DNA of 64,000 nt, taken from a virus. Below the pieces are notes generated by a model. The model searched no databases. It was given only the letters and a program-made list of their open reading frames with translations, and was not told the DNA's origin. Of the stretch, positions 5,010-20,285 are shown in pieces. Positions within the stretch are counted from its first letter, which is position 1; the number at the start of each line of letters is the position of its first letter. The DNA lies in IMG/VR virus record IMGVR_UViG_3300005613_000018, positions 35,610-99,609 of that record, one strand, 5' to 3'. Both the position numbers and the translations under genes were made by a program.

Positions 5010-5044
5010 ACCTTTGTTAGGGATGATAAGAATGGCTTTGCGTT

Positions 5045-5079
5045 ATTGTTAGTAACCTTTAAAGTTCTCCTGTAATGTA
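5045..5079 (+). repeat. Cassette repeat copy 1
   Basis: attgttagtaacctttaaagttctcctgtaatgta. Confidence 0.8.
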
Positions 5080-5090
5080 TCCAACTGACT

Positions 5091-5285
5091 ATGAAACCTA
5101 AATTCATTTGTGTTCAACCAAAATCAAGTAAAGCAAAGAACAGATTTGCAAACTTGATGTATAATCTACATTCATGTAGAATTGAACAGGAAGATGGTGA
5201 TAAGATTTTTCTTTCATCTATCACTGGCAAATACCACTTCTGGATGAACAAAATCAACGATGAAAACTGGACGGTAATCAAATGA
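5091..5285 (+). CDS. Hypothetical phage protein
   Basis: ORF directly after repeat copy 1; overlaps the next ATG. Confidence 0.7.
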   Translation: MKPKFICVQPKSSKAKNRFANLMYNLHSCRIEQEDGDKIFLSSITGKYHFWMNKINDENWTVIK

Positions 5286-5650
5286 CCATTTCATACAACA
5301 AAACTTGGGAAGTAATGAATGGTTTGGAAGAATCATTCAATCGAATCTCAACTCTAGAGTTTATGATTGAACAACTGGGAGAAGCAGTTGATAACGAAGA
5401 TCAACGATCAGTGATTAATTTGACTCGTGCTCTTCAAAGTTTCATGCCTGTTTATGTTAATCAGTATGAAAAAGCATCACAGCGAGCATGGAATAACACT
5501 GTTGGTGAAGTTCGTAAACTAGATAATCCTTATCATAGTTACGAAACTGACAAATCTACATCTAGTCTAGAAGATGTGGACATTGATTATAATGAACTTC
5601 AAAAGTTTTTTGAAGATGACATCACCGAACAAACTTCCGAAAGAGAATGA
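5282..5650 (+). CDS. Hypothetical protein
   Basis: ATGA-coupled ORF in operon. Confidence 0.7.
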   Translation: MTISYNKTWEVMNGLEESFNRISTLEFMIEQLGEAVDNEDQRSVINLTRALQSFMPVYVNQYEKASQRAWNNTVGEVRKLDNPYHSYETDKSTSSLEDVDIDYNELQKFFEDDITEQTSERE

Positions 5651-5796
5651 TTAATCATCGTATTTTCGAACACATTGAGCCTCAAGATGTTGAGGCTTTT
5701 CTTCAAGATTGTTCCAGTGAAGCCAATAAACTTGGAATCAATCTCGAACATTACATTGAAGAATATGTAATTCTTGAGGAAATTAATTATGACTAA
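5647..5796 (+). CDS. Small hypothetical protein (49 aa, MINHRIFEH...)
   Basis: Manually translated; ATGA overlap with the upstream gene. Confidence 0.6.
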   Translation: MINHRIFEHIEPQDVEAFLQDCSSEANKLGINLEHYIEEYVILEEINYD

Positions 5797-5959
5797 AGTT
5801 CAAGATCTTATTATTGCACTGAATCAAATTGAAAACTTGGTATCACTTCTCGATGAAAATCCAGAGAAAACATTTATGTTCAATCAGCTGATTCCTGTGA
5901 AGTATGAACTTCAGAAACAAATTCAAAGTCTGACAAAAAAAGAAGTTGACATTGATTAA
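5789..5959 (+). CDS. Hypothetical protein (probable start MTKVQ)
   Basis: ORF track 5774..5959; internal ATG at 5789. Confidence 0.6.
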   Translation: MTKVQDLIIALNQIENLVSLLDENPEKTFMFNQLIPVKYELQKQIQSLTKKEVDID

Positions 5960-5974
5960 TTTTTAAGTTATAGT
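5946..5974 (+). promoter_or_regulatory. sigma70-type promoter TTGACA-17-TATAGT
   Basis: Canonical boxes and 17-nt spacing upstream of 5997. Confidence 0.7.
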
Positions 5975-5996
5975 TTGATTGTAATTTACTTTACTG

Positions 5997-6230
5997 ATGA
6001 AATACTTCTTTGTTGTTGACCATTTTGTTCCGTTTCCAACTTCCGAATACGGTGGAATTTGGAATGTAATTGCTGAAAATGAGGAAGAATGTTTTGACTT
6101 AATTTCTCATGAAGATGATGCATTTCATTTTGAGTATTATGGTAAATTAAGGGAAAATATTAGAAAATCCTCTAAATATTCCTTAGTTGATGAACTAGAG
6201 TCAAAAGTTGTAACCTCATTCCTTACCTAA
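5997..6230 (+). CDS. Hypothetical cyanophage protein
   Basis: ORF after promoter; VPFPTSEYGG motif. Confidence 0.7.
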   Translation: MKYFFVVDHFVPFPTSEYGGIWNVIAENEEECFDLISHEDDAFHFEYYGKLRENIRKSSKYSLVDELESKVVTSFLT

Positions 6231-6231
6231 T

Positions 6232-6393
6232 ATGGAAAGTACAAGAGCAATATCCATCATTCAACAACTCAACACTCACATTGCAGAATTAGAGAAAAAA
6301 ATTGTCTCTCAAAAAGAAGAGATTTTGGGACTTGAAAATCTTATTAAATTACTTCGAGCAGACATGCCAGACAATAGGGAATTTGATGAATGA
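6232..6393 (+). CDS. Small coiled-coil hypothetical protein (53 aa)
   Basis: Manually translated MESTRAISII...; fills the gap and couples to 6390. Confidence 0.6.
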   Translation: MESTRAISIIQQLNTHIAELEKKIVSQKEEILGLENLIKLLRADMPDNREFDE

Positions 6394-6572
6394 GTGAAAA
6401 AGAAAAACTTGCACTCGGTCTTATGATTGAGAGTGTTTTGAAACCTGATACAAAACTTCGAAGTTGTGCATTCAATCAAGGATGTTATGATGAGTTGATG
6501 GAGTGGAGGAAGAAAATTCTAAATCTACTCTATCAATACGAAGTTCATGAAAATTCTTTTGATATTCGATGA
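6390..6572 (+). CDS. Hypothetical protein
   Basis: Coupled ORF in operon. Confidence 0.65.
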   Translation: MSEKEKLALGLMIESVLKPDTKLRSCAFNQGCYDELMEWRKKILNLLYQYEVHENSFDIR

Positions 6573-6850
6573 AATTTCCTTTCAAAGCTCCTCTAAACCA
6601 TGAATATTGGACAGATGATTATTCTCAAACTGTCACAAGAATATGGATAAAAAATAAATCGATGGAGTTTACTTATGGTGATGAGAAACATCCAAGTTCT
6701 GTTTGGGGGTTTTGGGATAAAAAGAAAAAAGTTTTTCTGTCACCGATTAATCATAAAAAACCTGGTAAAGTTGTAAATATTGAAAATTGCACTCCATATT
6801 CTGCAATGCAACTTAATCTAAATCCACTGATGTCAGCTTTTAACTCATGA
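6569..6850 (+). CDS. Hypothetical cyanophage protein
   Basis: Coupled ORF; ends TPYSAMQLNLNPL. Confidence 0.7.
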   Translation: MKFPFKAPLNHEYWTDDYSQTVTRIWIKNKSMEFTYGDEKHPSSVWGFWDKKKKVFLSPINHKKPGKVVNIENCTPYSAMQLNLNPLMSAFNS

Positions 6851-7086
6851 CAAAATACGAGCCAGAAGTAAATGATTACGTTCAGTGGAGAAATCATCAA
6901 GGATGGGTTTATTTCAAGGATGAGGAACATATTACCATTGAAATTGGTGTCAAAGAAAAACCACATTGTGAATATGTAAAAAATAGTTTACATTGTAAAG
7001 ACCATATTTTGATTGTTTGTCAAAATTGGTATTGGCATGAACTTAAATATGTAAAATCAAGAAAATCAATTTATGAGGAACAATGA
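6847..7086 (+). CDS. Hypothetical cyanophage protein
   Basis: Coupled ORF. Confidence 0.7.
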   Translation: MTKYEPEVNDYVQWRNHQGWVYFKDEEHITIEIGVKEKPHCEYVKNSLHCKDHILIVCQNWYWHELKYVKSRKSIYEEQ

Positions 7087-7307
7087 AATCATCCGATATA
7101 GAGTTGTCAACAACATATAGACAATTTGCTTTTGAGAGAATTTCAAGAGAGATTGAAAGTTGTAATGATATTGTAATTCTGAAGGAAGCCCTTCGTTCTT
7201 ACGTTAAATTGTTTTTCAAACAACAAGAGACAATATCAAACATTGATGATTTTGAAATAAACATCGGTGGTGATATTCCTCCAGAATTTGATGACCCTTT
7301 AATGTGA
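7083..7307 (+). CDS. Hypothetical protein (possible NblA-like helical protein)
   Basis: Coupled ORF; 'LSTTYRQFAFERISREIE...KEALRSYVKLFFKQQE' loosely resembles the NblA pattern. Confidence 0.55.
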   Translation: MKSSDIELSTTYRQFAFERISREIESCNDIVILKEALRSYVKLFFKQQETISNIDDFEINIGGDIPPEFDDPLM

Positions 7308-7312
7308 GAGAA

Positions 7313-8011
7313 ATGAAAAAAACTTTATTTGGAATTGGTATTTTATTGGCATCTTTATCGATGCCAACAATTAGTAGTGCAAATAATCAAAATGATTTTC
7401 AACAGAACCCACTTGAATATCCTAATGATTACTATTCTATGCATTCGTTGGGTTGTTTACTTCTCCAAGAATGTAAAGGTGGTATTACAAAAGTTACCTC
7501 ACAGTCGGATCTGGAAAACTATTATGATTATACCATTAATGTTGGGGAAGAACTTAATCAGATGTTTAAGTCTTTCGACAAGTTAGGAATCGAAGTTTAT
7601 ATTGCACCTGAGGAATATTTCCCTGTTGGGCATCGTGGTGTTTACCATACGGTTTCAAATAATTTTTATTTGAATGAAAGATATATGTCTAAACCTCATG
7701 TTTTGATGTCTGTAATTAGACATGAAGGTTGGCATGCTGCTCAAGATTGTATGGCTGGAAGTTTAGACAATACTTTTATTGCAGTCATTAAAAATGACAA
7801 TGAAATTCCTCAGTTATGGAAAGACATTGCAAAAGATACTTATCCTTTAAATGCACTTCCTTGGGAACAAGAAGCGATGTGGGCAGGTAAAGTGGAAAAT
7901 ATGACTGCAAATGCCCTGAAAGCATGTGAAACTGGTGCTATGTGGACGATTTATCCTCCCACACCATTAACTAAAAAGTTTTTAATCGACAAGGGTTATA
8001 TTCAGGAGTAA
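7313..8011 (+). CDS. Putative exported metallopeptidase-like protein (HExxH)
   Basis: Signal-peptide-like MKKTLFGIGILLASL; RHEGWHAAQDC motif plus downstream WEQEA. Confidence 0.65.
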   Translation: MKKTLFGIGILLASLSMPTISSANNQNDFQQNPLEYPNDYYSMHSLGCLLLQECKGGITKVTSQSDLENYYDYTINVGEELNQMFKSFDKLGIEVYIAPEEYFPVGHRGVYHTVSNNFYLNERYMSKPHVLMSVIRHEGWHAAQDCMAGSLDNTFIAVIKNDNEIPQLWKDIAKDTYPLNALPWEQEAMWAGKVENMTANALKACETGAMWTIYPPTPLTKKFLIDKGYIQE

Positions 8012-8232
8012 TGTGGAGAATTTGGTGTTACGCCTTAGGTAAGAAAGAGGGTAGAGATGATAAAGATGCAGATAAGATTGCATTTGTCAGAACCATAATT
8101 ATGGTTCAGTTAGTAATCACTAACATGTTCATCATTTCTGGTAACATAAAGAACTTATGGTTTGATAATTCACCTAGATGTATTATACATAGTCGAAATG
8201 TGACACTTTCTGAAGTGTCCACGACCCCTTGA
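8011..8232 (+). CDS. Small membrane-associated hypothetical protein
   Basis: MWRIWCYALG...; hydrophobic segment. Confidence 0.65.
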   Translation: MWRIWCYALGKKEGRDDKDADKIAFVRTIIMVQLVITNMFIISGNIKNLWFDNSPRCIIHSRNVTLSEVSTTP

Positions 8233-8257
8233 CTTCTAGGTCATTATCAAATATATT
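8202..8257 (+). promoter_or_regulatory. Early promoter with upstream palindrome GACACTT-N4-AAGTGTC and TTGACT-17-TATATT
   Basis: Perfect palindrome 8202-8219; -35 at 8229-8234; -10 at 8252-8257. Confidence 0.7.
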
Positions 8258-8284
8258 ATCAAAGTAGTCACCAGGAGTTCAACA

Positions 8285-8455
8285 ATGTCCTTCACTTACA
8301 TTCCACAAAAGTCAAAGTATCGGGTTACTCTTGAAATTGATGCAATGGATGATTTCAACCCTCATCAAATTGATTGGGAAAAAATTCTTGACCTTCAAGG
8401 TTCTGAAAAAGTTGAATCTTATGTGGAGGATCTGAGCACTCCTGATTTCTGGTAA
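8285..8455 (+). CDS. Small hypothetical protein (56 aa, MSFTYIPQKSKYRVTLEI...)
   Basis: Manually translated; AGGAG RBS; follows promoter. Confidence 0.7.
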   Translation: MSFTYIPQKSKYRVTLEIDAMDDFNPHQIDWEKILDLQGSEKVESYVEDLSTPDFW

Positions 8456-8461
8456 TTTACT

Positions 8462-8620
8462 ATGAACACTGTCACTATTCAAAATCCTATGTTTGATGAA
8501 ATTAAGGATCTTCCTGGTGAGATCTTCGACATTGACGAATCTGTTTTTGATGACATTGTAAGTGAAGTCATTACAGATGACTGGTCAAATGTGATTGAAG
8601 TTGATTTCAATCAAGATTGA
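8462..8620 (+). CDS. Small acidic hypothetical protein (52 aa)
   Basis: Manually translated MNTVTIQNPMFDEIKDLPGE... Confidence 0.55.
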   Translation: MNTVTIQNPMFDEIKDLPGEIFDIDESVFDDIVSEVITDDWSNVIEVDFNQD

Positions 8621-8667
8621 TAAAAACAAGAGGAGAACTAAATAGATCTAGGTTTAGTTCTCCTCCA

Positions 8668-9297
8668 ATGAAAACTTTTTCACAATTTATGATCGAAGCA
8701 AATTATGATCCCGAAATTCAGGGTCGTAGTCAAATTCGTAAATCTGGAGAAGGTGGAAGATTATATCCATCAAAGAAAAAAACTAAACCCGAAATCCGCA
8801 GAATGAAAGCGGTTGGTGGCGGGAAAATGGAACCGGTAGGATATAAAGATAGAAAAGATATTGGTCAACAAAAACCAAAAAGTCAAACTCAACAACAACC
8901 TCAACAAGAAAGAGGTAGTAAAGAAGTCAAACAAACATACGCAGATAAAATAAAAGCTGAAAGAAGAGCTGCAGCAAAAGCAAGAGCAGCAGCTAAGAAA
9001 TCTGGTGGTGAAGTTCAGAAATCTACAACATCTTCAAGGGGAACTGAAAAACAAGCTACAAAACTCCTGAGTACAAAGAAACCTGAGAAGAAAGTATCAC
9101 CTAACTATAAACCCCAAAAAGCGTCAGGATATACACGTCAGGAACGCATGAAGATTACTCGTGCTGGTGAAAGAGAACTCTCCAAAGAGTTCAAGAGACA
9201 AGAGTTAGGTAAAGTTGAGAAAGAAACTGGTAAAAAAGCAACTGGTAAGTTGAAGACTATTGCTCTCGCTCGTGCACATCAAAGAATGAGTACATGA
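8668..9297 (+). CDS. Basic late protein with MKTFxQF...E N-terminus (probable internal head protein)
   Basis: TAAATA at ~8640; MKTFSQFMIEA resembles T4-type capsid-targeting leaders; K/R-rich. Confidence 0.6.
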   Translation: MKTFSQFMIEANYDPEIQGRSQIRKSGEGGRLYPSKKKTKPEIRRMKAVGGGKMEPVGYKDRKDIGQQKPKSQTQQQPQQERGSKEVKQTYADKIKAERRAAAKARAAAKKSGGEVQKSTTSSRGTEKQATKLLSTKKPEKKVSPNYKPQKASGYTRQERMKITRAGERELSKEFKRQELGKVEKETGKKATGKLKTIALARAHQRMST

Positions 9298-9452
9298 TTT
9301 TTAATGTTAAAGGTAGATGGACTGACTTTCGTGGAAGAAGTCATAATTTTACTATGCAATCGGATAGTGCAGATAGAGATTTGATTCGACAATTAGTTGA
9401 ATCAAGATACCCTGCAGAAAAAGTTTATATCAATAACGTAAGTCAGAATTAA
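9294..9452 (+). CDS. Small hypothetical protein (52 aa, MIFNVKGRW...SQN*)
   Basis: Manually translated; stop TAA overlaps repeat copy 2. Confidence 0.6.
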   Translation: MIFNVKGRWTDFRGRSHNFTMQSDSADRDLIRQLVESRYPAEKVYINNVSQN

Positions 9453-9490
9453 AGTTAGTAACCTCCAAAGTTCTACTGTATTGTAACCAC
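9451..9490 (+). repeat. Cassette repeat copy 2
   Basis: aaagttagtaacctccaaagttctactgtattgtaaccac. Confidence 0.9.
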
Positions 9491-9499
9491 CACTAAATC

Positions 9500-9700
9500 A
9501 TGAACAATTCTTCTCAAATCCTTCGTGAACTTCAAGATCTCAAGAAAACTCACAAAGTTCAGGGATTTCGTTACACGAATGAACAACAGGAACGTTATGA
9601 TGAACTGATGGGTCTTCGTCGGGCTTTCATTCAATACTGGAATGAAAATGGTATGGTCTGGGTTGGTCCTTCTAACGCTGGGAGTAATTTTGAAGAGTGA
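9500..9700 (+). CDS. Hypothetical protein
   Basis: ORF after repeat copy 2. Confidence 0.7.
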   Translation: MNNSSQILRELQDLKKTHKVQGFRYTNEQQERYDELMGLRRAFIQYWNENGMVWVGPSNAGSNFEE

Positions 9701-9725
9701 TTGAAAACCTTATCTGAATAAAATT

Positions 9726-10031
9726 ATGAAATTTAACACTAAAAAGTGTGACGTTTTCCAAGACGGAGAACATCTGTTTGAATTCAATCATCAAAGAATT
9801 AAATATCTTTCGAAAGATATTTTGAAAAGTTATCAAAAACAACTTGATAAACTTGCAAAAAGATACAAAAAATGTAACAGTAGTTCAAAATTTGAAAGAG
9901 CTGAAGACATGGCATCATTGTATTATGAATGGAACGCAACCACTGATGGAAGTACCATTTACATCGTACAATCAAAAGATGATCCAAATACTTTCACCTA
10001 TGTTGAAACTGGAGATGAACTTTACGTCTGA
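9726..10031 (+). CDS. Hypothetical protein
   Basis: ORF track. Confidence 0.65.
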   Translation: MKFNTKKCDVFQDGEHLFEFNHQRIKYLSKDILKSYQKQLDKLAKRYKKCNSSSKFERAEDMASLYYEWNATTDGSTIYIVQSKDDPNTFTYVETGDELYV

Positions 10032-10034
10032 CAC

Positions 10035-10062
10035 TTGACACCTCTAGATGAGGTGTTATAAT
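10035..10062 (+). promoter_or_regulatory. sigma70-type promoter TTGACA-16-(TGn)TATAAT containing an inverted repeat
   Basis: ACACCTC/GAGGTGT inverted repeat spans the spacer. Confidence 0.7.
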
Positions 10063-10158
10063 AACAATGTCGAAATAACATTACTTTTTCGATCCGTCTC
10101 TGATCTAACATTACCTGATCAAAAGAGATAAAAACACACATTATTTTGAGGTATCCTC

Positions 10159-11364
10159 ATGTCTAACAAAAAGAATTTTCTGAAGGTTTTCCCTGTCAAG
10201 AAGTCACCAAAGGTGAAAACTATTCGTAACGTAATCTCCGATTATTGTGGAGTGATTGAAGAATCTGAAGGATTTGGATTGGTTGATCCTGCTGGAAGAC
10301 CGAAGTATATTGCTCCAGAAAACTGTCAGCGCCCTGAATCCTGGAATGATGAAGATCGTAAGTATTGCTTTGAGTCTATCCTGATGGACCAACTAGAAGG
10401 TAATCTTATCTTTATCAATTTGAAGGTTGCTATCTCTAAACTAAAAGATCTTGCTCCTGAAGATCCTGCCCTTGAAGAACTTGAAAAATATGTACGTCAA
10501 AAATATGGATATATTGTCCTGGATGGAAATAATCGAATCTCTTTCCTGACTAATCTTATCACGAACCAGTATAAACTCCCTCGTGGATCTTTTCCCTATG
10601 TTTGTGATGGCAAAGTAAAAACTCTTACCATTGCAAGTAATACATACTTCTCTAACTTGAAAGAAGATGTTCAAGAACTGATCCTTGAACGTGAATTAGT
10701 TATCAGTGAATATACTCAGATCAATGGTCAGAGTATGAGTAATGTTTTCCTTGCTGCTAATGCAGGTTGTCCTCTTAATCATCAAGAACGTCGCAATGCT
10801 CGGTATAATTCTTGGGCATCATGGATTCGCAGTATTCGTCACAACAACAACGATCTGTGTATCAAAGCAGAAGGAATTAACCACAATAAGCGTCTGAAGG
10901 GTGATGAGTTTCTAACTCGAACAATTAATCTTGCTCTTCGTCTCAAATTTATCGAAGAGAGTGAAAATGTTCCTACCGTGACACAACACACCATGAACCA
11001 AATGTATAGGGGAGACTTCGTAACTGATGAACAAAAAGAATCCTTTGAGGCTAACTTCAACCTCTTGGATAATTGGATGGATCGTCTCAGTAAACAAGAA
11101 AGAATCACTGATAAGATGCTTACAGCATCCACGATGCAAAATCTTTATTGGATGATGACAAATGGATTGACTGAGTATGAAGATGTTGTTAATGTTGTTC
11201 AAATGCTCCATAAAGCAAAAACCATGTCCAAATATGTTAATGAAGATGGTAACAACTTTGCATGGGCATGTGGAGGCACCGGTTCTAAACACAATCAGAT
11301 GCGACTGAAAGTTTTCTCCGATATTTTTGATAAACTAGGGTCAAAATCAAAGATTTCCTCCTAA
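10159..11364 (+). CDS. DUF262 / ParB-Srx fold protein (GmrSD/DndB-like N-terminal domain)
   Basis: Motifs QRPESW, IVLDGNNR and FLAANAGCPLN match the DUF262 QR / DGQQR / FxxxN pattern. Confidence 0.65.
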   Translation: MSNKKNFLKVFPVKKSPKVKTIRNVISDYCGVIEESEGFGLVDPAGRPKYIAPENCQRPESWNDEDRKYCFESILMDQLEGNLIFINLKVAISKLKDLAPEDPALEELEKYVRQKYGYIVLDGNNRISFLTNLITNQYKLPRGSFPYVCDGKVKTLTIASNTYFSNLKEDVQELILERELVISEYTQINGQSMSNVFLAANAGCPLNHQERRNARYNSWASWIRSIRHNNNDLCIKAEGINHNKRLKGDEFLTRTINLALRLKFIEESENVPTVTQHTMNQMYRGDFVTDEQKESFEANFNLLDNWMDRLSKQERITDKMLTASTMQNLYWMMTNGLTEYEDVVNVVQMLHKAKTMSKYVNEDGNNFAWACGGTGSKHNQMRLKVFSDIFDKLGSKSKISS

Positions 11365-11366
11365 TA

Positions 11367-11422
11367 GACACTTTCTAAACTGTCCACCACTCCTTGACGG
11401 GGGTGGTTTTTTCATGTATATT
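11367..11422 (+). promoter_or_regulatory. Early promoter/terminator element: GACACTT-N4-AACTGTC, then a stem-loop holding TTGACG, -10 TATATT
   Basis: -35 at 11394-11399 sits in the accactcc/ggggtggt stem-loop followed by a T-run; -10 at 11417-11422. Confidence 0.7.
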
Positions 11423-11440
11423 GATTTTATTGATTGATTT

Positions 11441-12625: not shown

Positions 12626-12834
12626 CCTTCAATAATTCTCACATTCTTGATCCTAATCCAGGAGTGATTGGGTTTGTTGTTGACAATGGAAAGTATGCAG
12701 CAATTCCTATTGTTGGGAATGACAAAAAACTTATGGTCATTTACAATGACTGTAAAAGTATGAAGGTATGTAGAAACAAACAATCTGCAATAAACTTCAT
12801 CGAGAAGGAGAGAAAACGAAAGAATAAAAGTTAG
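12622..12834 (+). CDS. Hypothetical protein
   Basis: Coupled to the helicase; stop TAG lies inside repeat copy 3. Confidence 0.65.
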   Translation: MTFNNSHILDPNPGVIGFVVDNGKYAAIPIVGNDKKLMVIYNDCKSMKVCRNKQSAINFIEKERKRKNKS

Positions 12835-12866
12835 TAACCTCTAAAGTTCTTCTATAGTGTAACCAC
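12827..12866 (+). repeat. Cassette repeat copy 3
   Basis: aaagttagtaacctctaaagttcttctatagtgtaaccac. Confidence 0.9.
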
Positions 12867-12878
12867 TTCTTTTTTATC

Positions 12879-13067: not shown

Positions 13068-13070
13068 TTC

Positions 13071-13238: not shown

Positions 13239-13240
13239 TT

Positions 13241-13280
13241 AAAGTTAGTAACCTCTAAAGTTCCCCTTTACTGTAACCAC
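13241..13280 (+). repeat. Cassette repeat copy 4
   Basis: aaagttagtaacctctaaagttcccctttactgtaaccac. Confidence 0.9.
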
Positions 13281-13291
13281 TGATTTCAAAT

Positions 13292-14176
13292 ATGCCACTC
13301 ACTCACATCGAACATCCTGAAGATACCATCCTCACGGGTGATATGACCGCCATTAATGTTCTTTATGGTCGTGGAAATGTTTCTGTGAAGGTTGATGGAG
13401 CTCCTGCAATTGTGTGGGGAATTGATCCTAACAATGACAAGTTCTTTGTTGCAACCAAGAGTGCATTTAACAAGAAAAAGATAAAGCGTTGTTACAGTAT
13501 TGAAGACATTTACACACTTTATGATGAGAAAACTCATGGTAGTTTGATTAAAGTTCTGGTTGCATGTTACAAACATCTTCCTGTAACAATCGGTGTCTTT
13601 CAGGGTGATTTTATTGGTTTCGGTGGTAGTGATACTTACACTCCAAACACTTTGACATACAATTTCCCTGAAGTTGTGTCTGAGGATATTATCATCGCTC
13701 CTCACACTTACTATCTTGGTGATGACTTTCCTACAATGGAAGCTTATCCTATAGAGGGTGAACTTATCAGCACTGATTCTTGTAAATTCGTTCAACCAAT
13801 TGTTGATAGAGTTTTTGGTAATAGTCGAGCTCCAAAGATTAACACCGACATGATTGACTTCCTAAGTGAGAAGGAATCAAAACAGGCAAAGATGTCAATC
13901 AACGCCATCATTCGTTCTGGTCAGGAACTTGATGAAGAGACCTTAATTGACATTGTTGGTTCTCCAATGTTGGCAAATCTTTACATGTTTGTGTTAGAGA
14001 TGAAGTATGATTTGATGGAAACTTTCATCATTTACGATTCTCCAGATTGTTATCTCAATGGTGAAAAGATTATGGGTGAAGGTTTCGTAATGACTTCTGA
14101 AGATGGTAACACAATTAAACTTGTTGATCGTCCTCAGTTTGCATACGCTAACATGACTCAAGGTCGTTTCAATTAA
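13292..14176 (+). CDS. Ligase/nucleotidyltransferase-fold protein (DUF6267-like)
   Basis: HIEHPED, SVKVDGAPA (KxDG motif I), FQGDF, GEGFV and IKLVDR motifs. Confidence 0.6.
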   Translation: MPLTHIEHPEDTILTGDMTAINVLYGRGNVSVKVDGAPAIVWGIDPNNDKFFVATKSAFNKKKIKRCYSIEDIYTLYDEKTHGSLIKVLVACYKHLPVTIGVFQGDFIGFGGSDTYTPNTLTYNFPEVVSEDIIIAPHTYYLGDDFPTMEAYPIEGELISTDSCKFVQPIVDRVFGNSRAPKINTDMIDFLSEKESKQAKMSINAIIRSGQELDEETLIDIVGSPMLANLYMFVLEMKYDLMETFIIYDSPDCYLNGEKIMGEGFVMTSEDGNTIKLVDRPQFAYANMTQGRFN

Positions 14177-14214
14177 AGTTAGTAACCTCCAAAGTTCCAC
14201 TGTATTGTAACCAC
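14175..14214 (+). repeat. Cassette repeat copy 5
   Basis: aaagttagtaacctccaaagttccactgtattgtaaccac. Confidence 0.9.
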
Positions 14215-14225
14215 GTTTTTTGATT

Positions 14226-14663
14226 ATGAGCACTCGTTCACGAATTGGTATTGAACTTGCTGACAAATCTATTCTCAGCATCTATCAACATTGGGATGGT
14301 TATCCTGAGTGGACTGGTCGCATTTTGAACACACATTACACCAATAAAGAGAAAGTTTCTGAACTGATTGATGGTGGTGATTGTTCATCTATCTGGACAA
14401 AAGATCGTTGGACTGGTAAACAACTTGCCCCATATGTGATTGAACAGAAAGAATCAAAGGAATATGGCCCACAACATTACTCTGGACGTGGTGAGGATTG
14501 TCCTCCTCGTCTTGATAATAATGTGAAAGAGTTTCTCTCTGATGGTGAAGAATACTCTTACATTTTCCGTGATGGTGAATGGATCTGTTACAACATGCAC
14601 CAGTTTGATGAGAGAAAATCTCCTGAAGTTGTTGAGATTCCAAATGGGGCACTTGCCTGTTGA
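14226..14663 (+). CDS. Hypothetical phage protein (MSTRSRIG...HWDGYP family)
   Basis: ORF bounded by repeat copies 5 and 6. Confidence 0.75.
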   Translation: MSTRSRIGIELADKSILSIYQHWDGYPEWTGRILNTHYTNKEKVSELIDGGDCSSIWTKDRWTGKQLAPYVIEQKESKEYGPQHYSGRGEDCPPRLDNNVKEFLSDGEEYSYIFRDGEWICYNMHQFDERKSPEVVEIPNGALAC

Positions 14664-14664
14664 T

Positions 14665-14703
14665 AAAGTTAGTAACCTCCAAAGTTCCACTGTATTGTAA
14701 CCA
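14665..14703 (+). repeat. Cassette repeat copy 6
   Basis: Identical to copy 5 over 39 nt. Confidence 0.9.
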
Positions 14704-14710
14704 TTGAACT

Positions 14711-15049
14711 ATGATGATCACTCAAACCAAACCCGAATTTCTGACTGAAGCACTGATTGAAGTTTTGAACAACGATCAGAAAGTCAACGCTATCGAATCT
14801 TCACGAAATACTTATACCAACTTTGAGTATGAAGTGGGTCGAAAGTATATCAAAGTTTGGTCTTATTTGATCTCTGATGGTGAACGTCTTCGTGGCCGTT
14901 CTTGTTACATGTTCGTTGATAAGAACACTGGTGAAGTGTTCAAACCAGCGTCATACAAAGCACCAGCTAAAGGTGTGAGGTATCTTATCACTCAACTGGC
15001 AGATAATCCTCACATTTGTGATCCTTACGGTTCTTTTCTTTATCTCTGA
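14711..15049 (+). CDS. Hypothetical phage protein (GRKYIKV...KPASYKAPAKGVRY family)
   Basis: ORF after repeat copy 6. Confidence 0.75.
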   Translation: MMITQTKPEFLTEALIEVLNNDQKVNAIESSRNTYTNFEYEVGRKYIKVWSYLISDGERLRGRSCYMFVDKNTGEVFKPASYKAPAKGVRYLITQLADNPHICDPYGSFLYL

Positions 15050-15126
15050 TGTTTATGTTTCGAGCATTGTATTACTTTTTTCTGGGAACATTCTTTATGA
15101 TTATCATTCGAGTTTTCTCGAATTAA
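15049..15126 (+). CDS. Putative 25-aa hydrophobic peptide (MFMFRALYYFFLGTFFMIIIRVFSN)
   Basis: TGATG coupling; stop overlaps repeat copy 7. Confidence 0.4.
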   Translation: MFMFRALYYFFLGTFFMIIIRVFSN

Positions 15127-15159
15127 AGTTAGTTACCTCGAAAGTTCCCTTATAGTGTA
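15125..15159 (+). repeat. Cassette repeat copy 7
   Basis: aaagttagttacctcgaaagttcccttatagtgta. Confidence 0.9.
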
Positions 15160-15180
15160 GGAACCACACTCTTAAAAACA

Positions 15181-15447
15181 ATGTCTGATTACATGGTCAA
15201 GATGGGTTCGAAACCTGAAACTTACGAAGATCATTGTCATGATACAATGAGTAAAATGTTGTCGGTAATTCGTTACCTTATGAAGGGTGAGAATGATCGT
15301 GCAAAGTATTGGTTTGAAGAGTTTGTTCTTCCTGGACTTGAAGAAGTGTATAAAGGTCAAGATCCTAAGTATGGTGTAAGTTCCTTCTCTATGTTATATC
15401 GTGAAGGTAACTTTGACTGGGATCTAATCTGTTCCTCTCCTCTCTGA
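15181..15447 (+). CDS. Hypothetical protein
   Basis: Bounded by repeat copies 7 and 8. Confidence 0.7.
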   Translation: MSDYMVKMGSKPETYEDHCHDTMSKMLSVIRYLMKGENDRAKYWFEEFVLPGLEEVYKGQDPKYGVSSFSMLYREGNFDWDLICSSPL

Positions 15448-15450
15448 ATT

Positions 15451-15484
15451 AAAGTTAGTAACCTCTAAAGTTCCCCTATAGTAT
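15451..15484 (+). repeat. Cassette repeat copy 8
   Basis: aaagttagtaacctctaaagttcccctatagtat. Confidence 0.9.
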
Positions 15485-15644
15485 GAACAACAACTATCTC
15501 ACTGATTACATCGAATCCAAAGGTTACACTGTAAGAGAGTGTTACCGTCCAGCTAAAAAGGAAGTTCCTGACAACATGAAAGATCGTTATTCTTCCTATG
15601 AAGAGTATCAAGAAGCACTGTACGATTTCCTCAACGGTCAATGA
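15483..15644 (+). CDS. Small hypothetical protein (53 aa, MNNNYLTDY...NGQ*)
   Basis: Manually translated; ATG overlaps the repeat end; couples to 15641. Confidence 0.55.
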   Translation: MNNNYLTDYIESKGYTVRECYRPAKKEVPDNMKDRYSSYEEYQEALYDFLNGQ

Positions 15645-15832
15645 AAACAACAACAGCAACTTATCAGATTGAAGTGACAACTGATGAAGGATATTTGGCA
15701 TTCATCAAAGTCATGCCCACACGTCCAAAAACACATAAGGGCATTCAATCACAGAACAATAAGTTATCAAAATGGGTAGAAAAAAAATATCCTAACTTTA
15801 CTTCTTACGACATTTCTCTTCTCGAATTATGA
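15641..15832 (+). CDS. Hypothetical protein
   Basis: Coupled ORF. Confidence 0.65.
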   Translation: MKTTTATYQIEVTTDEGYLAFIKVMPTRPKTHKGIQSQNNKLSKWVEKKYPNFTSYDISLLEL

Positions 15833-16029
15833 ATTCAATCTCAGAAAAGTTTATCGAAGATCGTCTTGTTTATCTGATTGAAAGACTGAATAGTGCAGTG
15901 AAAGTTTGTCATGAAGCAGTCGAGATTGAAGATCAAGGTTATCCTTACGCAACAGGATATAGTCGGTCAGCAATGCAATCAGTATCAGAAGAACTTCAAA
16001 ACATTGTGAAGGAGATTCAACAGAATTAA
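15829..16029 (+). CDS. Hypothetical protein (GYPYATGYSRS motif)
   Basis: Coupled ORF; stop overlaps repeat copy 9. Confidence 0.65.
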   Translation: MNSISEKFIEDRLVYLIERLNSAVKVCHEAVEIEDQGYPYATGYSRSAMQSVSEELQNIVKEIQQN

Positions 16030-16067
16030 AGTTAGTAACCTCCAAAGTTCTCCTATAGTGTAACCAC
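16028..16067 (+). repeat. Cassette repeat copy 9
   Basis: aaagttagtaacctccaaagttctcctatagtgtaaccac. Confidence 0.9.
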
Positions 16068-16087
16068 TACGTGACCCACTGATTCCC

Positions 16088-16258
16088 ATGACTGAAATGA
16101 CCTACTATGTGATGTTTCAATCTGAAGAACTGGAAATTCCTGAATACATTGGGCCTTTCTATTCTGAAGAGGACGCATCAGATTACGCTGATTACAACAA
16201 TCAAGGATTAGCTAACAATGGTGTTCCTGGATGGAAATCATCTTATGGAGTTGTCTAG
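16088..16258 (+). CDS. Small hypothetical protein (56 aa, MTEMTYYVMF...YIGPF)
   Basis: Manually translated; bounded by repeat copies 9 and 10. Confidence 0.65.
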   Translation: MTEMTYYVMFQSEELEIPEYIGPFYSEEDASDYADYNNQGLANNGVPGWKSSYGVV

Positions 16259-16263
16259 GAATT

Positions 16264-16297
16264 AAAGTTAGTTACCTCGAAAGTTCCCCTATAGTAT
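16264..16297 (+). repeat. Cassette repeat copy 10
   Basis: aaagttagttacctcgaaagttcccctatagtat. Confidence 0.9.
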
Positions 16298-16538
16298 GAA
16301 CAACACTCAAATGACTCTCACAGAACGAAACGAAAGGCTTTACGAACTTCGTCAGAAACTTAACAAGGCTCGTGCAGAAGTTGCATGGATTGAACAAGAA
16401 ATTTGGTTGGTAAAAGATCAATACGATCGTCAAGGTCGTGACATTTATCAAGAAATGTTTGGTGAAAAGAACACTTTATGGGATCATCTTGATCGTATGA
16501 GTGACACTCCCATGGCTGAAGCAATTTACGGAGGTTGA
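16296..16538 (+). CDS. Hypothetical coiled-coil protein (start may be 16311)
   Basis: ORF track. Confidence 0.7.
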   Translation: MNNTQMTLTERNERLYELRQKLNKARAEVAWIEQEIWLVKDQYDRQGRDIYQEMFGEKNTLWDHLDRMSDTPMAEAIYGG

Positions 16539-16541
16539 ATC

Positions 16542-16742
16542 ATGACTCTTCACGAACAACAACTCGATCAACTCAAACTCAATTACGCCGAGATGATTGT
16601 TGATGGTATGGATATGAATACTCTCATCACTTTTGCAGTTGAGAGTATTGAACAGAACATGAAAGATTGGGATGAAGAGGATGTTAAGTCTGAAATCTTA
16701 GATCTTTATGGTGAAGAAACATGGGAAAGTCTTCAGGAATAA
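16542..16742 (+). CDS. Hypothetical acidic protein
   Basis: GGAGG RBS; stop overlaps repeat copy 11. Confidence 0.7.
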   Translation: MTLHEQQLDQLKLNYAEMIVDGMDMNTLITFAVESIEQNMKDWDEEDVKSEILDLYGEETWESLQE

Positions 16743-16774
16743 AGTTAGTTACCTCTAAAGTTCCCTTATAGTAT
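16741..16774 (+). repeat. Cassette repeat copy 11
   Basis: aaagttagttacctctaaagttcccttatagtat. Confidence 0.9.
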
Positions 16775-16967
16775 GAACAACATTCAAACGACCATGAAGA
16801 ACACTATCGAACCTAAGTTTCTTATCTACGGTGAATTCATTCGTCCGAATGGTCATCAGAAATATGACATCTTGGGTTACATCGCTTCAACAAGAGAGGA
16901 GGCAATTCTCAACTGTCGTCGTAACAATCCTCACTTCCACATTATCACTGTACGGGAAGAATCCTGA
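16773..16967 (+). CDS. Hypothetical protein (start may be 16794)
   Basis: Bounded by repeat copies 11 and 12. Confidence 0.65.
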   Translation: MNNIQTTMKNTIEPKFLIYGEFIRPNGHQKYDILGYIASTREEAILNCRRNNPHFHIITVREES

Positions 16968-16972
16968 CTATT

Positions 16973-17012
16973 ATTGTTAGTTACCTCGAAAGTTCTTCTA
17001 TAGTGTAACCAC
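16973..17012 (+). repeat. Cassette repeat copy 12
   Basis: attgttagttacctcgaaagttcttctatagtgtaaccac. Confidence 0.88.
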
Positions 17013-17046
17013 TACGTGGCACACTACGTGACCCACTAATTTCATC

Positions 17047-17394
17047 ATGAGAAAGATCGAATCTCAAATGTGTCAGGCAATTCAGTCAAGTCAGAACTGG
17101 CAATCAGCTAACACTTGTGTCACATTTGACGAGAAAACTTCCACCTCTTCTGTTTATCTTCATGGTAATCTGATCGCTACTGTGACAGATAATGATATGA
17201 CGATTTATGATGGTGGCTATCAATCAAACACCACAAAATCACGATTAAACGCATTATGTAATGAATTTTGTATTTCTGGTGAAGGAGTTTTTCAAAAGAA
17301 TTTCAATTGGTATGTAAGAAAGTTTGTCGGATGTATCAATGGAGAGAATATCTTTCAGACTGAAGAATTCACTGATGGTTACATCTTCACCTGA
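17047..17394 (+). CDS. Hypothetical cyanophage protein (MRKIE...TTKSRLNAL family)
   Basis: Bounded by repeat copies 12 and 13. Confidence 0.75.
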   Translation: MRKIESQMCQAIQSSQNWQSANTCVTFDEKTSTSSVYLHGNLIATVTDNDMTIYDGGYQSNTTKSRLNALCNEFCISGEGVFQKNFNWYVRKFVGCINGENIFQTEEFTDGYIFT

Positions 17395-17399
17395 CTATT

Positions 17400-17439
17400 A
17401 AAGTTAGTTACCTCCAAACTTCCCCCATTACATAACCAC
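17400..17439 (+). repeat. Cassette repeat copy 13 (degenerate 3' half)
   Basis: aaagttagttacctccaaacttcccccattacataaccac. Confidence 0.8.
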
Positions 17440-17465
17440 TACGTGACCCACTACGTTCAATCATT

Positions 17466-17798
17466 ATGTTCACAACTGAAATGACCTTTGAAGTTATGAA
17501 TCCTGAATTTGCTGGATGTTATCTGGCTGTGTGTGATGGTGATATTTCTACCACTAAGTTCTTTGACACTAAGAATGAAATGTTTGGTTGGATTCTTGAT
17601 ATGTTAGAGAATAAAGGTTATGATGAAGTTCAAACTACTGTTATGGGTAAAAATGGTGAAGTAGAAGAAAAACTTCTCTGTAAAAAAGTGACCTATCTTC
17701 GTGATGAAGATTGTTATAAAGGTGGAAAATATGAACCTGAGATTGGTACTGATATTCGAGCAATTTACCATTATGAAGATAAGTTCTCTTGGGTCTGA
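17466..17798 (+). CDS. Hypothetical protein
   Basis: ORF after repeat copy 13. Confidence 0.7.
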   Translation: MFTTEMTFEVMNPEFAGCYLAVCDGDISTTKFFDTKNEMFGWILDMLENKGYDEVQTTVMGKNGEVEEKLLCKKVTYLRDEDCYKGGKYEPEIGTDIRAIYHYEDKFSWV

Positions 17799-17842
17799 TT
17801 TATCTCTTTTAATGTAACTCAAACTATCTAAATAACATTGCT

Positions 17843-17915
17843 TGTGTGTAGTTACCGAGCAGACTTGGGAGGCTTTGGGCCTCCTTTGTCGTATAAATAA
17901 GTATAACTACACACA
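17843..17915 (+). promoter_or_regulatory. Late promoter TATAAATA inside a hairpin that masks the endonuclease translation-start region
   Basis: 12-bp inverted repeat tgtgtgtagtta (17843-54) / taactacacaca (17904-15); inner ggaggc/gcctcc stem; TATAAATA at 17892-99. Confidence 0.75.
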
Positions 17916-17919
17916 CGGC

Positions 17920-18537
17920 ATGAATAACTTTTACACTTACGCTTTTTTGCGTGAGGATGGTTCTCCTTACTACATTGGCAAAGGTAGTGGATGTAGAGCT
18001 ACAAAAAAGAGATATGTGGGTGCAAAACGACCCAAAGATAAGAGCAGGATTATTATACTCAAAAACAACTTATCAGAGGAAGACGCATTTAAGCATGAAA
18101 TTTATATGATCAACATATATGGTCGTAAGAACAATCATACGGGCATTCTTCATAACTTCACAGACGGAGGTGAGGGATGTAGTGGTATGAAACACACCGA
18201 AGAGTTCAAGAGAATTAGAAGTGAAAAATATACAGGAAAAAAGAGACAACCTCACACAGAGGAGACTAAACAAAAGTTGAGGATTTCTCGCTCCAATCAA
18301 ACTGACCCCCGATTAGGTACAACACACACAGAGGAGACAAAGAAGAGACTGAGTGAACTTAAATGCAAATATGTGTATGAGTTGACATCACCTAAAGGGC
18401 GGAAATATGTTGCCAATAGTTCTAATTTATTCTGTAAAGAATACCCTGACTTAGAGTTAAATCCCGTTTGTATTCGTCGTGCCTCAACATCATCAAACAT
18501 GTATAAGGGTTGGTATATCATAAGACGAGAGAGATAG
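17920..18537 (+). CDS. GIY-YIG-type homing endonuclease with NUMOD3 repeats
   Basis: FYTYAFLRED..PYYIGKG...R, HE..MI..YGR, N.TDGGEG and three HTEE motifs; ATG 17920 follows a late promoter. Confidence 0.8.
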   Translation: MNNFYTYAFLREDGSPYYIGKGSGCRATKKRYVGAKRPKDKSRIIILKNNLSEEDAFKHEIYMINIYGRKNNHTGILHNFTDGGEGCSGMKHTEEFKRIRSEKYTGKKRQPHTEETKQKLRISRSNQTDPRLGTTHTEETKKRLSELKCKYVYELTSPKGRKYVANSSNLFCKEYPDLELNPVCIRRASTSSNMYKGWYIIRRER

Positions 18538-18571
18538 AGTTAGTAACCTCTAAAGTTCTTCTATAGTGTAA
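18536..18571 (+). repeat. Cassette repeat copy 14
   Basis: agagttagtaacctctaaagttcttctatagtgtaa. Confidence 0.9.
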
Positions 18572-18585
18572 TCAGTTATGCACTC

Positions 18586-18852
18586 ATGATTGAATCTAAC
18601 CTCTCCAAAATCAAACCTTGCTTAAGAACAACTGGCCAAGTAACTGGCAATTGGGGAAGACCAAAAGTTAGGACTCATGGTAACACTGACTTAGGATTTA
18701 CCACTAAAGAGAACATTACTATGACAACACAAGATGATTATTTGAAGAGAATGTATCAGGCTTTTGATAGAACTGATGACCCTAAAATGAAGAAATTCAT
18801 TTATAATGAGATCCGAAAGATTATGGTTCAAAGAGGATTGTGGAATGACTGA
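18586..18852 (+). CDS. Hypothetical cyanophage protein
   Basis: ORF after repeat copy 14. Confidence 0.7.
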   Translation: MIESNLSKIKPCLRTTGQVTGNWGRPKVRTHGNTDLGFTTKENITMTTQDDYLKRMYQAFDRTDDPKMKKFIYNEIRKIMVQRGLWND

Positions 18853-18853
18853 T

Positions 18854-19675
18854 TTAAGGTAAAAGAGAGGAAGGTTTTCTTCCTCTTCTTCCACATTTTG
18901 TTCCTTGTAATCTTGCAGCTTTTTTGGCTGTTTCTGAATTAAATCCACATTTTGATGGTGTCCAATTTGATGGAACTTCATTTCTCCACAGATACCAACC
19001 TTTACAACTATGTTTGTTATCATCTGGTGAATTTATAGAAAGGTGGATATTACCATTTGATGTCCTTTGACCTGATATAAACTCAGCACAATCAGCCTGA
19101 GTTGGCCATTCACCACGTTCACCATTTTTATGTAATCCGTATATTTTACCTCTTCTATTCACTCTTGATTTTTTATCAACTAAGTTCTCATTTTTCCAAC
19201 TCCATCTATATCCACCAGCTTGAAATGTAGTTCCTTTAATGCACGCAGTAATTGATGATTTCATCACACCTAATTCTTTTGATGCTATTCCTCTACTATC
19301 ATAATCACGAATATGTTCTCCCTCTAATGTATAACAACTGATAGGTTTAATGTTACTATTAGAGAGGTTATAAAGGTCTCTTAATACACCACTACCACCT
19401 AATGTTGAGTTGTATCCATTGTGATAACTATCTAACTTTTCTATCCAGTATTTCTCTCTCTCACTTACAACATCTTCATTACAGGTTTCTATTACATAGA
19501 AGGTAAAATTATCAACTCCTTCCTCACATATTGCATTACAGATGTCCATATTATTATAAGGTGATGTAGCGTTGTAGATGTGTTCTTTCCACCTAATATG
19601 AGGGTCTTTCTTTCTCGTTAGACCGACATATTTCCTATTGGTTTCTTTATGCTGAATGACATAGATTGAAGCCAT
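18854..19675 (-). CDS. GIY-YIG homing endonuclease with NUMOD1-like domain
   Basis: SIYVI...KYVGLT...RWKEH, EREKYWI...NGYNSTLGG; C-terminal YDSRGIASKELG...GGYRW. Confidence 0.85.
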   Translation of the reverse strand: MASIYVIQHKETNRKYVGLTRKKDPHIRWKEHIYNATSPYNNMDICNAICEEGVDNFTFYVIETCNEDVVSEREKYWIEKLDSYHNGYNSTLGGSGVLRDLYNLSNSNIKPISCYTLEGEHIRDYDSRGIASKELGVMKSSITACIKGTTFQAGGYRWSWKNENLVDKKSRVNRRGKIYGLHKNGERGEWPTQADCAEFISGQRTSNGNIHLSINSPDDNKHSCKGWYLWRNEVPSNWTPSKCGFNSETAKKAARLQGTKCGRRGRKPSSLLP

Positions 19676-19696
19676 TGGATAATACTCAATTAGATT

Positions 19697-19704
19697 TATT
19701 TATA
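19697..19704 (-). promoter_or_regulatory. T4-type late promoter TATAAATA for the minus-strand endonuclease
   Basis: tatttata on + strand, 21 nt upstream of the ATG at 19675. Confidence 0.7.
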
Positions 19705-19768
19705 TAGGGTAAGTGTTAAAAATAGACCCCTAATTGATTAAAGAAAGGTAAAGTTCTATTTTATACAT

Positions 19769-19789
19769 TGTGGAAAAACCTGTGGAAAA
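19769..19789 (-). promoter_or_regulatory. Two tandem DnaA-box matches (TTTTCCACA)
   Basis: tgtggaaaa at 19769-77 and 19781-89. Confidence 0.55.
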
Positions 19790-19803
19790 CTATGTTAATG
19801 AAG

Positions 19804-19905
19804 GAGTTAATCTTCTCTTTTATCTTATAAACCTCTGAGTTAATGTTCTCTTTTATCTTATAAACCTTCGAGTTAATGTTCTGGAAACTCTTATAAACCT
19901 TCGAG
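19804..19905 (+). repeat. Three 33-bp tandem repeats (GAGTTAATSTTCT...TCTTATAAACCT)
   Basis: Units start at 19804, 19837 and 19870. Confidence 0.9.
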
Positions 19906-20250
19906 GCCTTGTGATCTAAGATGTTCTAACATAAGGAGAACGATTTGTCAACCCCCAGACTCTGAAATCCTCACAATCCCCCCTCTCAAAGTGTCATAAA
20001 GACACACAGATTTCTTATGATTCTAAGCACTAAAAAAACCAATTAAGGGTGAGTTTTTTATAACTCCTTGGCAACCCTTTGATATTCAGTTGTCTGCTAT
20101 TTGTCGATCCTTGAGTGTTAACCAGTTTATGTGGAGTTTGTGTCTGACCATTGACCCCGTAGGATGGTTCAGTGTTATAAACTCAACGACCAGTTATTGA
20201 ACACAGTGGAACAAATAACTCAACTATTTATAACAAACTCATTTTGAATT

Positions 20251-20285
20251 AAAGTTAGTAACCTCCAAAGTTCCCTTATAGTGTA
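20251..20285 (+). repeat. Cassette repeat copy 15
   Basis: aaagttagtaacctccaaagttcccttatagtgta. Confidence 0.9.

Follow-up and report, generated by a model that had tools for sequence, protein, structure and literature searches.

The locus described here raises the question of what purpose is served by a 40-nt repeat, named element M, which recurs in 15 copies among the small genes of a cyanophage genome fragment. The repeat was studied in a window of 64,000 nucleotides (positions 35,610 to 99,609 of IMG/VR record IMGVR_UViG_3300005613_000018), which is the right-hand 64 kb of a 99.6-kb fragment estimated to be 47% complete. T4-like cyanophages rank with the most abundant viruses that infect the main primary producers of the ocean, and the timing of their gene expression is only partly understood because they lack the MotA/AsiA switch of T4; a fixed 40-nt signal present in about 13-15 copies per genome is concrete and testable in existing phage-host pairs. 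An original prediction, made from the letters of the window alone, had taken the repeat both for a dedicated promoter or activator site and for a recombination point. On balance, we favour a reading of the sequence in which M is a bipartite, factor-dependent phage promoter and also a direct repeat at which general homologous recombination reshuffles units made of M and its gene or genes. The present case contributes one particular element, which also occurs in cultured phages and whose upstream box has been swapped on a shared core.

The window was assigned to an uncultured T4-like cyanomyovirus (Kyanoviridae). Its nucleotide matches are short and lie in Synechococcus phages, and its DUF6267 gene (13292-14176) has homologues in 464 cyanophage records, the best of them in P-TIM68 (52%). 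The array of M copies sits in a run of small plus-strand open reading frames (ORFs) between a tail-fibre gene (1768-4860) and very large ORFs, which we take to be baseplate and fibre genes from the synteny with annotated regions of P-TIM68 and Syn9. The ORFs between M copies are mostly of unknown function, with the exceptions of a ResIII/DEAD helicase gene and of genes of the DUF6267, DUF7717, Kyano_Gp96 and DUF7249 families.

Positions within M were numbered from the first A of its AAAGTT. A pattern search allowing up to three mismatches found 15 matches in the window, all 15 on the plus strand, and shuffled sequences gave 0.00. The scan with a position weight matrix (PWM) that had been proposed beforehand was run on both strands of the whole 99.6-kb record with a 36-nt matrix of 39 bits; the 15 copies scored 41-57 bits and all other sites 12 bits or less, so that no further copy exists in the record. 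Twelve of the 15 copies fall between 12.8 and 18.6 kb, where neighbours are 232-1136 bp apart and enclose one to three ORFs. Both searches thus confirmed the original count of 15 co-oriented intergenic copies, and the description of a dense part with 12 copies and one to three genes per interval proved equally accurate.

Conservation was analyzed in 224 copies of M, representing 156 distinct contexts, from the window and 38 related IMG/VR loci. These loci were chosen because part of M matched them exactly, so that in each locus one copy or more is ascertained; the extra copies that the PWM found in them were equally conserved. All 224 copies lie on the coding strand and none on the opposite strand. 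The element comprises an upstream box, GTTAGTWACCTC, at +4 to +15, which occupies the -35 place, a second box, AAAGTTC, at +17 to +23, and a -10-like box, TATAGT, at +27 to +32 (T27, A28, T29, A30, G31, T32), while the conserved A39 is likely to be the transcription start. Among the 156 contexts, positions 5-9, 11-13 and 18-19 are invariant, and near-invariance holds for positions 4, 15, 17, 22, 23, 29 and 32. The original description was also borne out for the AAAGTT direct repeat with its 16-nt period and for the TATAGT/TGTATT box, often with AACCAC behind it. The near-palindrome GTTAGTAAC has to be dropped as a feature of M: it is present in only nine of the 15 copies, because the others have a T at a variable position, and it is not conserved, since relatives have lost it (TTAGTTAC in P-TIM68, TTACTCAC in S-B05).

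In most copies the stop codon of the upstream gene ends -7 to +10 nt from M position 1, and the next start codon lies 45-54 nt from that position in 127 of 218 copies; most of the start codons counted at 30-34 nt are spurious, being GTG or ATG triplets within M itself. Around the 15 window copies no terminator-like stem adjoins the element, except for a weak stem of five pairs at 16953, which agrees with what had been noted before; as the upstream stop codon abuts M, there is no room for a terminator in front of it.

The copies, all on the plus strand, head the following units. Copy 1 (5045-5084) has the weakest upstream box (ATTGTTAGTAACCTTT), heads the block w4-w19 and has a sigma70-like site 36 nt upstream. 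Copy 2 (9451-9490) heads w20-w21-(w22)-helicase-w24 and lies at a junction where an M-flanked cassette, x32-x33, is present or absent in relatives. Copy 3 (12827-12866) heads w25-w26, and copy 4 (13241-13280) heads the DUF6267 gene, whose homologues are preceded by M in 21 of 23 loci. Copies 5 (14175-14214) and 6 (14665-14704) head w28 and the pair w29 (DUF7717) and w30, respectively. Copy 7 (15125-15164) heads w31 and copy 10 (16264-16303) heads w36-w37; they are the two arms of an M-by-M crossover seen against three related loci. The ATG of w32 lies inside copy 8 (15451-15490), immediately 3' of TATAGT. Copy 9 (16028-16067) heads w35, and copy 11 (16741-16780) heads w38. Copy 12 (16973-17012) heads the gene of the Kyano_Gp96 family (17047-17394), whose homologues follow M in 14 of 14 loci. 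Copy 13 (17400-17439), with a degenerate -10-like box (CATTACAT), heads w40 and w41; copy 14 (18536-18575) heads w42 and lies within a window-specific segment (17804-18590) that also holds the endonuclease-like w41; and copy 15 (20251-20290) heads w46 (DUF7249). In addition, a second short repeat, ACTACGTG(A/G)C(C/A)CACT, was found four times against 0.3 expected, in the leaders after copies 9 (16066-16080), 12 (two overlapping, 17011-17037) and 13 (17438-17452); it could be an operator or leader element.

Is M maintained for a function? Orthologous copies, defined as copies before the same downstream gene in different loci, are 0.76-0.91 identical, compared with 0.45-0.77 for the third codon positions of the downstream gene, 0.17-0.80 for the leader and 0.35-0.65 for the 40 nt upstream. 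The constraint on M equals that on first and second codon positions, which indicates that the element is under purifying selection.

A function at the level of RNA was considered, in which M would be an unstructured processing site where a long early transcript is cut, or a ribosome landing site for leaders that have no Shine-Dalgarno sequence. M is indeed unstructured as RNA, seven copies with their flanks folding at z values of 0.0 to +1.5 against shuffles and thus being no more structured than shuffled sequence; with no terminators between the units, read-through RNA would contain M; the window leaders after M are without Shine-Dalgarno sequences; and an M that is transcribed would accommodate the w32 start codon within it. 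However, a near-invariant run of 35 nt with many G and C and no pairing is unlike known RNase E or standby sites, a TATAGT at fixed distance combined with a lineage-specific upstream box is typical of DNA recognition, and start codons lie at variable distances, from -2 to +40 nt past the box. An action on RNA therefore appears improbable to us.

We propose instead that some 15 short transcription units would each begin with M, in the small-gene (hyperplastic) arm that separates the tail-fibre genes from the baseplate genes. Host RNA polymerase would use the -10-like box and a sequence-specific factor would read the upstream box, leaving a leader of roughly 6-15 nt from the start at A39 to the start codon; as no terminator separates the units, they would be nested into read-through transcripts. 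Strand, position, the fixed -10-like box and selection all fit the earlier claim of a promoter or activator site, and it is from these that we infer the role; the short leaders, a conserved purine where the start would be expected, the lack of RNA structure and the figure of about 13-15 units per complete genome give further indirect support.

Such a promoter would not belong to the sigma70 type with -35 (TTGACA or TTTACW) and -10 hexamers spaced by 17 nt, since none of the M copies passed a 9-of-12 promoter scan. The absence of a TTGACA -35 from M, noted originally, was also found here. Strong sites of the form TTGACA-N16-17-TAnAAT are also present in the region, at 4981, 5946, 10035, 20948, 21973 and 23351, the promoter scan placing five of them at 4981-5009 (plus strand; TTGACA-17-TAGAAT), 5946-5974, 20948-20976, 21973-22001 and 23351-23379. 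M thus constitutes a second promoter-like class rather than a TTGACA variant, and these separate strong sites uphold the distinction that had been drawn between the two. Similarly, in P-TIM68 the TTGACA-type sites occupy the left part of the arm and M the right part, the same order as in the window. The late-promoter motif TATAAATA, which had been named as a further class, was not enriched in the window (6 found, 6.95 expected).

Doron et al. reportedly found in 2016 that the early genes of Syn9 and P-TIM40 are driven by a novel element and the middle genes by host-like promoters. If the same logic applies, the M-headed genes would, by their position only, be early. M resembles this early element of the Syn9 type in being a non-sigma70 signal before small genes in the same arm of Kyanoviridae genomes, beside TTGACA and T4-type late promoters. 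The upstream sequences of Syn9 and S-PM2 contain AAGTGTCC, which resembles AAAGYGTCC, a half-site of the M family. In Syn9 and S-PM2, AAGTGTCC stands within an inverted repeat (GACAC...GTGTC) about 35 nt upstream of the -10, whereas in M the AAAGYGTCC box lies directly against the -10, and its partner is an unrelated box that is lineage-specific and not palindromic. These two M boxes form a direct repeat (AAAGTT, 16-nt period) or are unrelated, and do not make a two-box inverted-repeat site of the Syn9 type. Common descent of the two half-sites is possible.

Several observations weigh against M as a promoter. The hexamer at its -35 position, GTTAGT or TTAGTW, matches TTGACA at no more than three of six bases, and 17% of copies have a G at the -11 position of TATAGT. 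A transcript from copy 8 could not encode w32, because the start codon of this gene falls within M and precedes the predicted start site; the N-terminus is confirmed by its match to Syn9 gp80 within one residue (86% identity). Translation of w32 would have to rely on read-through RNA from the preceding M copy, which the missing terminators would permit, but the promoter model does not foresee this cost. One P-TIM68 gene has the same problem. In three window copies, those at w32, w36 and w38, TATAGT is followed by ATGAACAAC; the S-B05 homologue of w36 starts at the second ATG, w38 also has a downstream in-frame ATG, and the first ATG of both genes probably belongs to the element. A last point is that no candidate for the factor was found, the two phage proteins with a promising distribution having been set aside. 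One of these (23408-24217, 269 aa, phrog_1574) is 74-84% identical in M-bearing phages and occurs also in P-SSM2, S-SCSM1 and S-SKS1, which have no M. The other, w18 (8617-9297, probable true start 8668), is present in ten records of the phage collection, nine of which carry an M-family element, the tenth being a 17-kb fragment; its product is lysine/arginine-rich, of low complexity and apparently disordered, nothing in it suggests a specific DNA-binding fold, and it is found alongside either type of upstream box. We therefore do not regard w18 as the specificity factor, although the gene could be one that travels with M.

The case for a factor comes from the bases that are invariant at the -35 place and along the spacer, together with the lineage specificity of the upstream box, which point to an additional sequence-specific protein that would recognise M. 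The family is found in at least four groups of cultured phages: P-TIM68, S-B05 and its relatives, SynMITS9220M01, and S-SM2, whose upstream box is a different one. A single 9-kb region of P-TIM68 holds 13 copies, with the same GTTAGTTACCTC box and a TAnTAATG box, and S-B05 has 14 copies in two regions, in nearly all of which the upstream box is changed to TTACTCACCTC. At least seven copies of the S-B05 type (TTACTCACCTC) occur in SynMITS9220M01, and S-B43, RN05-S and RB11-B also match M. In S-SM2 (12 copies) and the single-cell virus AG-345-O18 (9 copies), the downstream half, AAAGYGTCC[C/T]TATAGT, is the same and the upstream box, AGGGGGGTCGC, is unrelated. The half AAAGYGTCC-TATAGT is thus common to SynMITS9220M01, S-SM2 and AG-345-O18, and its version in the window is AAAGTTCC. 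The GTTAGTWACCTC core was absent from Syn9, P-TIM40, S-PM2, P-SSM2, S-SKS1 and S-SCSM1. Judged from these copies, the M family is bipartite: a shared half abuts the -10-like box, and a box of 11-12 nt at -35 differs between lineages and is uniform within a genome. The IMG/VR contig 3300005512_001100 (L032, oriented 1950-9260) holds five variant copies (TTAGGCACC...GCATTGTCCC) and, at its 3' end, two canonical ones; either its genome is a recombinant or a single recognition system accepts both boxes.

We suggest, tentatively and with more reserve than for the promoter itself, that the interchangeable upstream box before the shared AAAGYGTCC-TATAGT core, which is GTTAGTWACCTC in the window and in P-TIM68, may be read by a lineage-specific activator that is encoded by the phage and co-evolves with the box. 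If so, M would be a cyanophage counterpart of sigma appropriation by MotA and AsiA, in phages that have neither protein, and the roughly 15 transcription units that it heads in each genome would form a temporal class of their own. That one half is shared and the other private suggests a swap of promoter specificity between lineages. In T4 itself, MotA-dependent middle promoters have a -10 of the TAnnnT type, no sigma70 -35 and an activator box centred near -30. The likeness of M to them is one of layout only, as the M box GTTAGTWACCTC bears no relation to (a/t)(a/t)(a/t)TGCTTtA, the box of MotA, and T4-like cyanophages have been reported to be without motA and asiA (PMC5780444).

Other identities for M were considered and rejected. 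The hallmark bases of the HLR1 (RpaB), NtcA and LexA boxes (TTACA; GTA-N8-TAC) are missing from it in a comparison by eye. Mimicry of a host site found no support either: in a sample of 401 cyanobacterial genomes the core TTAGTWACCTCNAAA was not in excess of a reversed control, with at most two matches per genome, and a scan of one genome per species gave single scattered matches only, among the matches listed (at least 120 loci). A BLAST match of TCCTATAGTG to the reverse complement of T7 promoters (E = 0.8) was treated as chance, because it is on the wrong strand and T4-like phages have no such polymerase. A literature search for the motif string of M returned nothing relevant. CGRE1, the site of the GntR/PlmA-type protein PMM1637 before the yfr2 small RNA genes of marine picocyanobacteria, is a palindrome of 21-22 nt that begins at -55 to -57 and contains GTTG or GTTA and, 13-14 nt away, its inverted repeat (PMC6191309). 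GTTA is common to CGRE1 and M, but M lacks a dyad of this type, and the record shows no enrichment of GTTR-N13-14-YAAC (15 occurrences against 16.8 expected).

The second half of the reading that we favour concerns recombination. A direct repeat of 40-50 bp makes a crossover between its copies possible, and the general homologous recombination of the phage would thereby delete, insert or re-order units of M plus gene(s), with no part played by a site-specific recombinase. An alignment of relatives had been named beforehand as a test, and the window was accordingly compared with loci of at least 80% identity over at least 150 nt across 4.9-21.3 kb. Among 23 distinct homology breakpoints, 11 fell in M zones, 10 at other gene junctions and two inside genes, an outcome that bears out the expectation for nearly half of the breakpoints and leaves 12 of 23 elsewhere. 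As M zones make up 6.9% of bases, the excess is strong when counted per base (p = 1e-7); it is modest (p = 0.02-0.06) when M zones are counted as 13-15 of 45 gene junctions. Homology blocks begin at -16 to +3 of M (one at +55) and end at +34 to +46.

L046, and also L040 and L034, read as the window up to M at 15125 joined to the window from M at 16264; in L046 the switch lies within 30 nt common to both M copies, and this M-by-M deletion or insertion amounts to 1.1 kb. In addition, the w18/w20 junction has three alleles, with a single M in L021, with M-x32-x33-M in L019, L034 and L045, and with w19 inserted just before M in the window. More broadly, the conserved genes (helicase, DUF6267, w28, w20 and Gp96-like) are M-headed units whose order varies across lineages. 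M moves together with a gene, since the next gene differs in 99% of the pairs in which M is present in one locus and absent from the other. It thus seems that related phages sometimes swapped, lost or gained genes by crossover inside M.

These data have to be weighed against a simpler account, in which M is only a promoter and marks the edges of modules because viable recombinants break at gene boundaries and keep the promoter, with no elevated exchange at M itself. Breakpoints at module edges could indeed reflect selection for intact units and not a mechanistic hot spot, and the travelling of M with a gene suits this account. The enrichment over other junctions is borderline, ten of the 23 breakpoints lie at junctions without M, and the same successor gene is kept in 39% of locus pairs with M against 50% without it, a nearly equal adjacency (per-gene p = 0.09) that speaks against a special role of M in exchange. 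On the other side stand the switch in L046 inside 30 nt shared by two M copies, block ends positioned as expected for exchange within M, and the exact difference between M-cassette-M and single M in relatives. We consider an M that is only a promoter to be possible, though clearly the less probable account. The recombination point of the original prediction is accordingly retained for one crossover placed inside M and one case of M-cassette-M against a single M, with an excess over other junctions that is no more than modest.

The behaviour of M recalls the promoter-early stem-loop (PeSL) elements of the T4-type phages RB49/phi1, T4/PST and KVP40/nt-1, which combine a terminator stem-loop with a sigma70-like -35/-10 promoter; the papers describing them cover no cyanophages (PMC2839356, PMC4122927). 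Like PeSLs, M is a conserved intergenic repeat of hyperplastic small-gene regions, is co-oriented with the genes and recurs at intervals of 0.2-1.1 kb. In both cases close relatives differ by indels, replacements and changes of order whose ends lie within or beside the repeat, a crossover has been located within it, and where one genome has a cassette between two copies a relative has just one copy. Unlike PeSLs, M has no stem-loop and carries an invariant 12-nt box in place of a TTGACA-like -35. The analogy drawn originally therefore holds for behaviour, that is, for clustering and for breakpoints at the repeat, and fails for anatomy, where the stem-loop and the sigma70-type -35 are both missing. 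With M, shuffling of the PeSL type at regulatory repeats would reach the cyanophages and a repeat without terminator, which would help to explain the mosaic small-gene arm. At 15483-15832 of the window, w32 is 86% identical to Syn9 gp80, and w33 is 87% identical to a protein of S-SCSM1 and 69% to one of Syn9, while their neighbours are unrelated; as the flanking genes have no such matches, single small genes have been exchanged between distant cyanomyovirus genera.

An array with a repeat between every one to three unrelated small genes is also superficially integron-like, and M might be taken for the attC-like site of a site-specific recombinase that excises and integrates the cassettes. Integron attC sites, however, are inverted repeats that form hairpins, act with the tyrosine recombinase IntI and bound promoterless cassettes served by a single common promoter, whereas M forms no inverted-repeat hairpin and each of its units has its own -10-bearing element with an inferred promoter role. 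Moreover, breakpoints within M keep to no single fixed position. Neither the 99.6-kb record nor any of three complete genomes that carry M (P-TIM68, S-B05 and SynMITS9220M01) gave a Phage_integrase (PF00589) match, in a search that matched 14 of 14 control genomes and did not cover serine recombinases; this extends the original remark that no integrase is visible, as far as tyrosine recombinases are concerned. With neither a hairpin nor a tyrosine recombinase, M is not integron-like, the analogy had to be abandoned, and we regard a recombinase site as very improbable.

Away from M, many breakpoints can be explained otherwise, and several of them flank homing-endonuclease genes. Two such genes of the window lie at breakpoints relative to L026 and L033. 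The first, w41 (17842-18537, plus strand; NUMOD3, phrog_314), is homing-endonuclease-like and absent from both loci, with TATAAATA at 17892 near its probable start. The second (18854-19675, minus strand) is a GIY-YIG homing-endonuclease gene with an I-HmuI-like NUMOD domain, at a breakpoint without M and with TATAAATA 22 nt upstream of its start (19697). Between the helicase gene and w24, an HNH-AP2 gene that is not in the window occurs in L034 (2837-3316, minus strand) and also in L040 and L046; L021 has at this place a different, weakly HNH-like ORF (5021-5473, plus strand; E = 0.008, below the Pfam cut-off), likewise not in the window.

A window-specific insertion of 1.33 kb (10037-11366, plus strand) that is not bounded by M is absent from L019, L021, L034 and L045. 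It has a perfect TTGACA-16-TATAAT promoter with TG (10035) and an ORF of 401 aa (10159-11364) that matches GmrSD_N weakly, at E = 2e-4 and short of the Pfam cut-off, and a G+C-rich terminator-like hairpin lies just past it at 11386-11407, so that 10035-11407 reads as a self-contained insertion with predicted promoter, gene and terminator.

At the borders of the array, the tail-fibre gene at 1768-4860 encodes a protein of 1030 aa with collagen triple-helix repeats and a C-terminal endosialidase-chaperone (Peptidase_S74) domain, and its internal repeats give rise to many staggered matches to relatives. Beyond the last M copy, a 374-aa ORF (22031-23155; phrog_19197) matches the Pfam family DruA, a Druantia defence protein (E = 2.5e-11), and is preceded by the sigma70-like promoter at 21973.

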